Positions 51,769-52,178 of a stretch of 64,000 nucleotides of DNA are shown here, one piece after another. This stretch comes from Octopus vulgaris (lineage: Eukaryota), in contig OX597833.1 of NCBI GenBank assembly GCA_951406725.2, positions 66,712,001 through 66,776,000 on the forward strand. The letters run 5' to 3'. Both the position numbers and the translations under genes were made by a program. Each line of letters opens with the position of its first letter. Position 1 is the stretch's first letter. A model generated the notes under the pieces. The model was not told the origin of the DNA. It saw only the letters and a program-made list of their open reading frames with translations, and made no database searches.

Positions 51769-51770
<2 letters not shown>

Positions 51771-52170
51771 GATAAATATCAAAGTGAGTTATCTATGATA
51801 AATATCAAAGTGAGTTATCTACAGTAGCGGTAACACATCGTGACGTATATTTGCCATTTCAATATGGCTACCCCTAAGGGTGGATGCTACTGTAGTTTTT
51901 AGCCCCAGGAGGACACACTCCTCCAGCTGGCCATAGACACACTTTCTGTGTCCTGTCAGTATTTGCAAAGGGAAGTCATCCTTCCCGTCTTCAACTTATG
52001 ATACACACGGACTCGAGTTTCGAGGTATTGACCTCTCGTCAGCGTGTGACAATCATAGTTGTCGCCGAGAATTAGATTTCCTTCACAAATACTTATACTT
52101 TTTCCAGCGTCCACTGTCGCTGATATTGAAAAAGTGAAATCAAACAATGATAAATATCAAAGTGAGTTAT

Positions 52171-52178
<8 letters not shown>
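51769..52178 (-). mobile_element. Retrozyme-like non-coding element (352-bp unit, terminally redundant)
   Basis: ATGATAAATATCAAAGTGAGTTATCTACAGTA at 51795-51826 and 52147-52178 (partial third copy 51769-51794); internal hammerhead; (TA)n on both flanks; no meaningful ORF. Confidence 0.7.
52004..52048 (-). ncRNA. Minimal type I hammerhead ribozyme, intact core
   Basis: RNA: CACACG CUGACGA GAGGU caau ACCUC GAAA CUCGAG UC^ CGUGUG; all core nucleotides conserved, GUC site; stem I extends to ~51992/52061. Confidence 0.9.

Follow-up and report, generated by a model that had tools for sequence, protein, structure and literature searches.

The locus studied here, within a 64,000-nt stretch of Octopus vulgaris DNA (the window), raises the question of how a short non-coding unit with a hammerhead ribozyme came to stand between two copies of the same 32 nt in a run of TA dinucleotides, and which form of RNA served as its template. 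The original prediction was a retrozyme left behind by reverse transcription around a circular RNA. We find that the unit is a real, young ribozyme-bearing retroelement and likely a new member of the known animal retrozyme type, and the possible templates are weighed below. The features of the locus are as follows (X4 and X17 are public sequencing runs).

51725..51768, no strand: (TA)22 tract, the left flank, from repeat analysis; probably the nicked target and the primer
51769..51794, minus strand: additional 26-nt stretch that repeats the head of the terminal repeat and directly adjoins its left copy
51795..51826, minus strand: left 32-nt terminal repeat, exact, corresponding to the 3' end of the hammerhead-sense RNA
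51795..52146, minus strand: 352-nt non-coding unit, 43% GC, with a multi-hairpin fold (folding); closure in X4 and X17
51992..52061, minus strand: extended helix I, with the internal loop and distal stem flanking the hammerhead core (folding)
52004..52048, minus strand: canonical type I hammerhead (descriptor and Rfam); the listed family variants avoid its 12 core positions
52147..52178, minus strand: right 32-nt terminal repeat, exact, read as the overshoot past one unit; of Penelope-tail size
52179..52249, no strand: (TA)n tract, the right flank, about (TA)36, from repeat analysis; the junction TA is common to the element end

A complete type I hammerhead was read directly from the letters of the minus strand at 52048-52004. 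The core consists of CUGACGA and GAAA with a GUC site, there are 6 bp in helix I, 5 bp in helix II, which ends in a 4-nt loop, and 2 bp in helix III, which is capped by the tetraloop UCGA (an 8-nt palindrome). The cut is predicted between 52010 and 52009. The strand, stem lengths, site and cut position proposed earlier were all confirmed by this reading, and the proposed continuation of stem I through an internal loop was borne out by folding, in which the distal helix AUGAU/AUCAU paired with probabilities of 0.85-1.0. The label "minimal", on the other hand, had to be given up. The canonical metazoan hammerhead has a helix I of 6 bp, a helix II of 4 bp, a helix III of 1-2 bp and a palindromic loop, and in the minimal hammerhead of Penelope-like elements helix II measures 7-8 bp, helix I is shorter and A9 is followed by an additional base (PMC4209133; this and the other papers are cited from their available sections). 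The helix geometry of the octopus ribozyme is that of a canonical type I hammerhead of metazoans. A minimal Penelope hammerhead was rejected on the grounds of the 5-bp helix II, the 6-bp helix I and the lack of an extra base between positions 9 and 10.1.

When both strands of the window were searched with a descriptor, this hammerhead was the sole match. An equally strong motif occurred in 0 of 60 shuffled windows, and a loose form was found at 0.05 per shuffle. The Rfam model Hammerhead_1 (RF00163) aligned to 52004-52048 over 45 of its 45 positions, with 32.2 bits and an E-value of 6.5e-6. The model check suggested with the original prediction thus gave a full-length match, but one that lies 1.8 bits below the gathering score of 34, and because of this the whole-window Rfam scan at that score reported 0 hammerheads. 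The motif is beyond chance. In the folding prediction, the ground state differs from the active fold: the probability was about 0 for helix III and about 0.3 for helix II, and imposing the hammerhead fold on the unit cost 5.9 kcal/mol in the folding calculation. Among metazoan non-LTR retrozymes, conserved tertiary contacts that join loop 1 to loop 2 occur in coral and axolotl and mostly absent in mussel. Neither metagenome contigs nor viral contigs contained a match to a 22-nt ribozyme pattern (0 in each set).

On the plus strand, the order of the insert is (TA)22, then 26 nt of a first start, then a second start from the same base that runs for 352 nt plus 32 nt, and finally (TA)n. The 32-nt direct repeat, found at 51795-51826 and 52147-52178 with a spacing of 352, is exact as claimed and not extendable, and its first 26 nt occur a third time at 51769-51794, immediately before the left repeat. 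One A is common with the closed unit at the left junction, and TA is common with the target at the right junction. The location within (TA)n also proved correct, with (TA)22 on the left and about (TA)36 on the right; tracts of (TA)10 or longer make up 5.4% of the window (77 tracts). The unit is non-coding, as had been stated, the longest ATG frame on the closed unit being 12 aa in the sense and 25 aa in the antisense direction. The fold of the linear unit gave a z of -6.4, with 0 of 100 shuffles as stable, and that of the circular unit a z of -5.9, with 0 of 60 shuffles as stable and 63% of the bases paired. The two ends of the unit, folded alone, showed no excess over shuffles (z of -0.6 and -1.0), so no special start-site structure was seen. 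The size of 352 nt, the GC content of 43% and the fold z of about -6 match those of metazoan non-LTR retrozymes, and the copy at this locus is likely a dispersed retrozyme of that kind.

Self-BLAST of the 64-kb window found no second copy of the unit. No Pfam family reached the cut-off in the 93 of 200 candidate frames searched, which run from 36094 to the window end, and a linked reverse transcriptase (RT) or GIY-YIG frame was not found at the locus among these 93 of 200. Pol III A and B boxes had no match on either strand of the unit, and no tRNA was found. A tRNA-derived SINE with a hammerhead, transcribed as a Pol III unit, is a type known from schistosomes; this candidate was rejected because the unit lacks the A and B boxes, both of which the SINE-like element at 52866-53150 does give. 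The additional 26-nt copy is likely either an abortive first start of cDNA synthesis or the result of later DNA slippage. Tandem duplications of similar size occur elsewhere in the window, one exact of 30 bp (50736-50796) and one near-exact of 25 bp (49610-49665), and DNA slippage is therefore possible for the 26-nt restart.

The 410-nt stretch from the additional 26-nt copy to the right repeat was matched to public sequencing runs, throughout as contigs. From these, X1 and X3 were guessed to be DNA runs and X4 and X17 RNA runs; X1 may be the source sample, and X3 comes from a separate study with a separate organism code. At least half of the 40 words sampled from the unit were present in 20 of the 24 runs listed (11 studies, 7 organism codes). 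The contigs that fit the 410-nt stretch numbered 3961 in X1 and 3060 in X3, their likeness to the locus spanned from below 90% to above 99%, and the variant table of X3 was nearly identical to that of X1. This is a many-copy family with subfamilies, in agreement with the multiple copies that had been expected. Contig number and summed depth are not copy number, and the crude bounds of about 130 to 8,600 copies indicate the order of size only. RNA on record for the family was not found among the runs examined.

The summed depth of the 32-nt repeat over its two placements was about 0.4-0.5 million in both DNA runs, like that of the adjoining unit, as compared with 30-60 for contigs of single loci. 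The repeat is therefore not a target-site duplication. That it might be host sequence had been named as a possible objection; the family-level depth in X1 and X3 marks it as element sequence and rules out a host target-site duplication, unless contigs were misassigned. The depth over the repeat was about one time, not two times, that of its neighbours, which is a weak hint, given the edge effects on depth, that most copies lack the doubled 32-nt repeat. Contigs that overran the ends amounted to 9 of 3961 and 5 of 3060 in the two DNA runs, and the share continuing into unlike sequence was 0. Among the loose ends listed (359 others lie outside the list), those of the DNA runs belong to diverged variants of the unit, and a high-depth extension was absent. 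The bin 51769-51782, within the additional 26-nt copy, was covered in X1 only, at a depth of 29.9.

X4 and X17 each contain one copy whose match starts at 51798 behind a long unrelated AT-rich flank. These flanks differ from each other and from that of the locus, and are not (TA)n. One copy in X4 (record 30) is cut short at the right, at 52064. Taken with the double start at the locus, these ends point to a ribozyme-sense RNA whose 3' end is fixed and whose 5' end varies, although the sample of three left ends is small; 51795 is likely a fixed start of reverse transcription. This start lies away from the ribozyme cut, the distance from the left repeat edge being 215 nt. The original prediction described the copy as circularly permuted and slightly longer than one unit. 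The excess length holds, at 352 + 32 nt, but the ends do not look freely placed, as indicated by the double start and by the two other copies that end within a few bases. A monomer excised by the ribozyme would end at 52010/52009, and a cut linear template is therefore excluded, which leaves a closed circle or, uncut, a tandem or a monomer. The locus holds one hammerhead and no tandem. It would therefore be a dead-end daughter that is unable to release a circle by itself, like the dispersed monomers described in the available part of the 2026 Xenopus preprint (10.64898/2026.07.22.740005).

A joining of 51795 to 52146 in sequencing data had been proposed as a check for a circular RNA. The joint from 52146 back to 51795, that is, back by 352, was found in contigs of X4 (depth 54) and X17 (depth 23.6). 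The depth of the X4 joint is close to the 52.6 of the contig covering 51992-52149. Record 9 of X17 has 383 nt, equal to a 353-nt variant unit plus 30, and thus represents the full unit with one added base; the contig word size is presumably k=31, as in Logan assemblies, and 383 is then the length of a closed loop. This record differs from the locus at about 4 sites, so the closure is not private to the copy at the locus; it is a family trait. However, all 352 31-mers of the circle also occur in a linear copy of the form repeat-unit-repeat, because the 32-nt repeat is at least k-1 long, and for this reason the closed contigs are no proof of an RNA circle. The joint is there, but it separates a circle neither from a tandem nor, in 31-mer assemblies, from a linear copy. 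Only the absence of branches into the flanks favours a cycle, and next to (TA)n such branches can be pruned during assembly. The closed paths in X4 and X17 fit tandems, circles or pruned single copies. Across 23 bins, depth in X4 and in X17 rises and falls with that of the DNA (Spearman 0.93 and 0.76, respectively), as expected of DNA or of passive read-through of many copies, and does not indicate one dominant abundant RNA. The joint was absent from the lists of X1 and X3; this was not counted, because the contigs of these runs are short and break at variants, and none of those listed spans the stretch.

The variant table listed 40 of 46 rows, and the conservation of the core rests on those 40. 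Among them, 10 variant sites fall in the 45-nt ribozyme and 0 at the 12 core positions (hypergeometric p of 0.029). The commonest change in the ribozyme is C to U at the free position N7, with 21-75% of the depth in X1, X3 and X4. In helix II, changes at 52035 and 52022 lie on apparently one contig of X4 (record 29, depth 23.5) and turn the pair G10.1-C11.1 into A-U. At 52034 and 52023, the changes reach comparable shares of the DNA depth (0.15/0.18 and 0.11/0.14) and, if linked, would convert an A-U pair to G-C. The changes 52035 C>G and 52022 G>T, with 10-16% of the DNA depth and about 65% in X4, would, if linked, leave pair 10.1-11.1 at the base of helix II mismatched as C-A. In a divergent subfamily, the cut site and helix I's 3' strand are retained, and loop III is UCGG, which still self-pairs, at -8.9 as compared with -10.7 kcal/mol.

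Further forms of the unit were seen beside these point changes. Divergent subfamilies, recognised from loose ends behind 51986-51990 in X1, X3 and X17, keep the 3' half of the ribozyme and five bases past helix I and have the distal stem replaced. A loose end of X4 behind 52103 keeps the base of the hairpin near 52100-52134 and has a different top. This pattern suggests selection for the RNA fold as a whole. In X1, a joint that leads from 52032 back to 51846 across 11 intervening letters, at a depth of 239, would yield a unit of about 198 nt without the CUGA box, and a joint from 52033 to 51956 is present in both DNA runs, X1 and X3. X1 and X3 also show rearrangements in which 46, 85 or 236 nt are skipped, as well as joints to the opposite strand near 51915-51972.

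The window as a whole is rich in microsatellites and SINE-like repeats. To the right of the (TA)n tract lies a fold-back at 52249-52742, with arms of about 205 bp that are 97.6% alike around a 19-nt centre; its right arm extends for another 64 nt to a further (TA)n. The arms contain words resembling the minimal hammerhead of Penelope-like elements at 52523 (plus strand) and 52403 (minus strand), with a 6-bp helix II and an extra base before it, C in place of A9, and a broken helix I. The relaxed pattern that finds such words gave 0.01 matches per shuffled window. BLAST found no likeness between the fold-back and the unit, and the copy in the left arm had no Rfam hammerhead match. We regard the fold-back as a probable Penelope terminus, inverted and decayed, that lies within the same TA tract. 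Of the SINE-like elements, the one at 52866-53150 has its A box at 52881 and its B box at 52925 and ends in (TA)n; another at about 51200-51420 appears by eye to be its kin on the opposite strand, and both may be octopus tRNA-derived SINEs. Tandem units at 33728-34319 (199 bp, 3 copies, 93% alike), 25164-25681 (184 bp, 2.8 copies) and 44985-45348 (194 bp, 1.9 copies) contained no hammerhead motif in the descriptor search. A 128-aa frame at 42552-42935 (plus strand), which presumably corresponds to the end of a LINE reverse-transcriptase protein, was related to three of 8 candidates; just one of these is named, an uncharacterised protein of Octopus vulgaris with 57% identity, which lends modest support to the cephalopod label of the original prediction.

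Among the systems described so far, the closest are the metazoan non-LTR retrozymes (PMC7229834; 2026 preprint), and nearest among these are the units of the mussel Mytilus galloprovincialis, which have 350-390 nt and accumulate as circles (PMC7229834). Canonical hammerheads of metazoans occupy units of 150-450 bp (PMC7229834). The octopus unit agrees with them in the canonical type I ribozyme, the 2-bp helix III with a tetraloop, the non-coding length of 352 nt, the GC content below 45%, the strong self-pairing, the many copies, the dispersed monomers and the presence of Penelope-like elements in octopus genomes. It differs in that the locus holds one monomer extended by 32 nt, together with the 26-nt restart, and not a tandem of at least 2 ribozymes; a fixed start off the cut site and a tail-sized overshoot are not described for these retrozymes in the available parts of PMC7229834 and the 2026 preprint. 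The pseudo-LTRs (pLTRs) of Penelope-like elements (PMC4209133; PMC8557442; PMC11167929) share the type I hammerhead in a terminal non-coding stretch, the AT-rich or microsatellite target, the lack of a visible duplication, the end extension of 30-40 nt and the internal start of reverse transcription. The octopus unit, unlike these, has no reading frame, has the canonical geometry, and closes on itself with a period of 352 nt rather than continuing into an RT-endonuclease frame. Plant LTR retrozymes are likewise non-autonomous hammerhead retroelements with a direct terminal repeat, but they have type III hammerheads in both LTRs of about 350 bp, PBS and PPT, and 4-bp target duplications (PMC7761336), whereas the octopus unit has one internal type I ribozyme and a 32-nt repeat without a ribozyme. 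A plant-type LTR retrozyme was therefore rejected, the ribozyme being of type I and located outside the 32-nt repeat.

The purified Poseidon protein of Anolis cleaves AT-rich DNA and initiates reverse transcription inside the RNA, at two RNA sites that bound the 30-40-bp tail and without homology to the target (PMC11167929). Such internal, homology-free initiation is what copying a circle requires. A target bias to (TA)n has been described for Naiad and to microsatellites for Neptune, with no visible duplication, together with a Penelope tail of 30-40 bp (PMC8557442). In O. vulgaris, 336 young Penelope-like insertions from 31 families have been counted (PMC13282606). The copy at the locus carries marks of a Penelope-type insertion, namely (TA)n on both sides and the 32-nt overshoot, whose match to the tail is by size only. 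By analogy with these enzymes, insertion into (TA)n was likely carried out by a Penelope-type reverse transcriptase/endonuclease. Weighing against this target reading, tracts of (TA)10 or longer are common in the window, and the other two flanks are AT-rich without being (TA)n.

We hold with good confidence that the family is of the retrozyme type. Given such a family, a circle is somewhat favoured as the template, and we put about even chances on the full reading, in which a ribozyme-made circle of a Penelope-driven retrozyme was copied from a fixed start for one lap plus 32 nt. Under this reading, a tandem master copy elsewhere would be transcribed by read-through, two hammerheads 352 nt apart would excise the monomer, and a host ligase would close the ring. 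A Penelope-type enzyme would then nick AT-rich DNA and prime at the base equivalent to 51795, not at the cut 215 nt away; it would make 26 nt, restart at the same base, complete one full lap and end 32 nt past the start, at the TA common to target and element. A bolder version, to which we lend rather little credence, is that this young family records its own making, with a fixed start, a telomerase-like stutter, one lap, and a stop at the length of a Penelope tail (32 nt) past the start. The circle is burdened by the frequent pair of variants that would produce a C-A mismatch and by the fold cost of 5.9 kcal/mol. Moreover, the enzyme seems able to re-initiate, as the 26-nt restart suggests, and a second initiation on a linear template could likewise account for the last 32 nt.

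This leads to the rival that survives best, a possible though on balance doubtful one, in which the same family and a Penelope-type enzyme are retained and the template is linear, either an uncut head-to-tail transcript or a monomer copied with re-initiation or an end-to-end jump. The 32 nt would then represent either a tail of Penelope type or another start that was aborted, and circles, if any are made, would be by-products. The uncut RNA was the main in vitro substrate of Poseidon, and ribozyme mutants still insert (PMC11167929); the 26-nt restart fits re-initiation at the same base; and the closed contigs are equally compatible with tandems. However, a conserved self-cleaving core in the middle of such a template would split it, and the listed variants spare that core. 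In addition, the circular monomer accounts for a large part, or the largest, of the RNA found in coral, mussel and axolotl (PMC7229834).

That the unit is a solo pseudo-LTR, or the 3' end left by truncation of a long coding Penelope-like element, is improbable. In its favour, Penelope-like DNA makes up 6.83% of O. vulgaris with 190 families (PMC13282606, supplement), solo termini with a hammerhead are the commonest form (PMC4209133), the Xenopus retrozymes are kin to pLTRs (preprint 10.64898/2026.07.22.740005), and a decayed inverted pair of Penelope type adjoins the locus. A kilobase-long coding element, however, does not give the 352-nt period needed for repeat-unit-repeat, and the contigs of X4 and X17 run from the repeat into the unit again. 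The ribozyme also lacks the minimal marks of Penelope (a helix II of 7-8 bp, a helix I of 4-5 bp and the extra base after A9), and no Pfam family reached the cut-off in the 93 of 200 candidate frames from 36094 onward. Descent of the unit from a pLTR is possible.

Spread at the DNA level, through satellite units, extrachromosomal circles or recombination in (TA)n, with the hammerhead as a passenger from a Penelope ancestor, appears decidedly improbable. Reinsertion of a DNA circle can also produce a permuted and slightly redundant copy, and the runs examined hold no RNA on record for the family. Nevertheless, the nearly common left end of three copies, the right truncation at 52064, the restart at the left and the spared core fit a polar, RNA-templated process. 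Finally, a chance hammerhead motif or a host target-site duplication as the source of the 32-nt repeat has a very remote probability, the Rfam score below the gathering threshold and the target duplications of more than 4 bp stated for retrozymes (PMC7229834) being outweighed by the 0 of 60 shuffles with such a motif and the family-level depth of the repeat.

Retrozymes are known from corals to salamanders, with one mollusc included, and a cephalopod member alone would be of little surprise. A retrozyme from octopus or another cephalopod was not found in the literature searched, outside of which lie most subscription papers and the repeat libraries. In the available text and supplement of the 2026 repeat annotation of O. 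vulgaris (PMC13282606), the words ribozyme and hammerhead occur 0 times; the repeat library of this species may list the family as an unclassified SINE, an unknown or a Penelope entry. For the giant squid genome, 235 Hammerhead_1 hits are given, with no analysis alongside in the available part of the paper (PMC6962438). Against the circle reading, eight of nine predicted Xenopus retrozyme dimers were uncleaved in vitro (preprint 10.64898/2026.07.22.740005).

The part that could matter is the anatomy of the insertion, with its fixed start and tail-sized overshoot. Circle-templated, Penelope-driven spread is a hypothesis in reviews, which describe animal retrozymes as lacking a motif that names their partner (PMC7761336, available part). 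A young family with many nearly identical copies makes both the circle template and the Penelope partner testable. If the reading is true, the locus would be direct genomic evidence that a circle serves as the transposition template in animal retrozymes. It would likewise be direct evidence that the Penelope machinery mobilises animal retrozymes, and would name the site on the RNA that the enzyme recognises.
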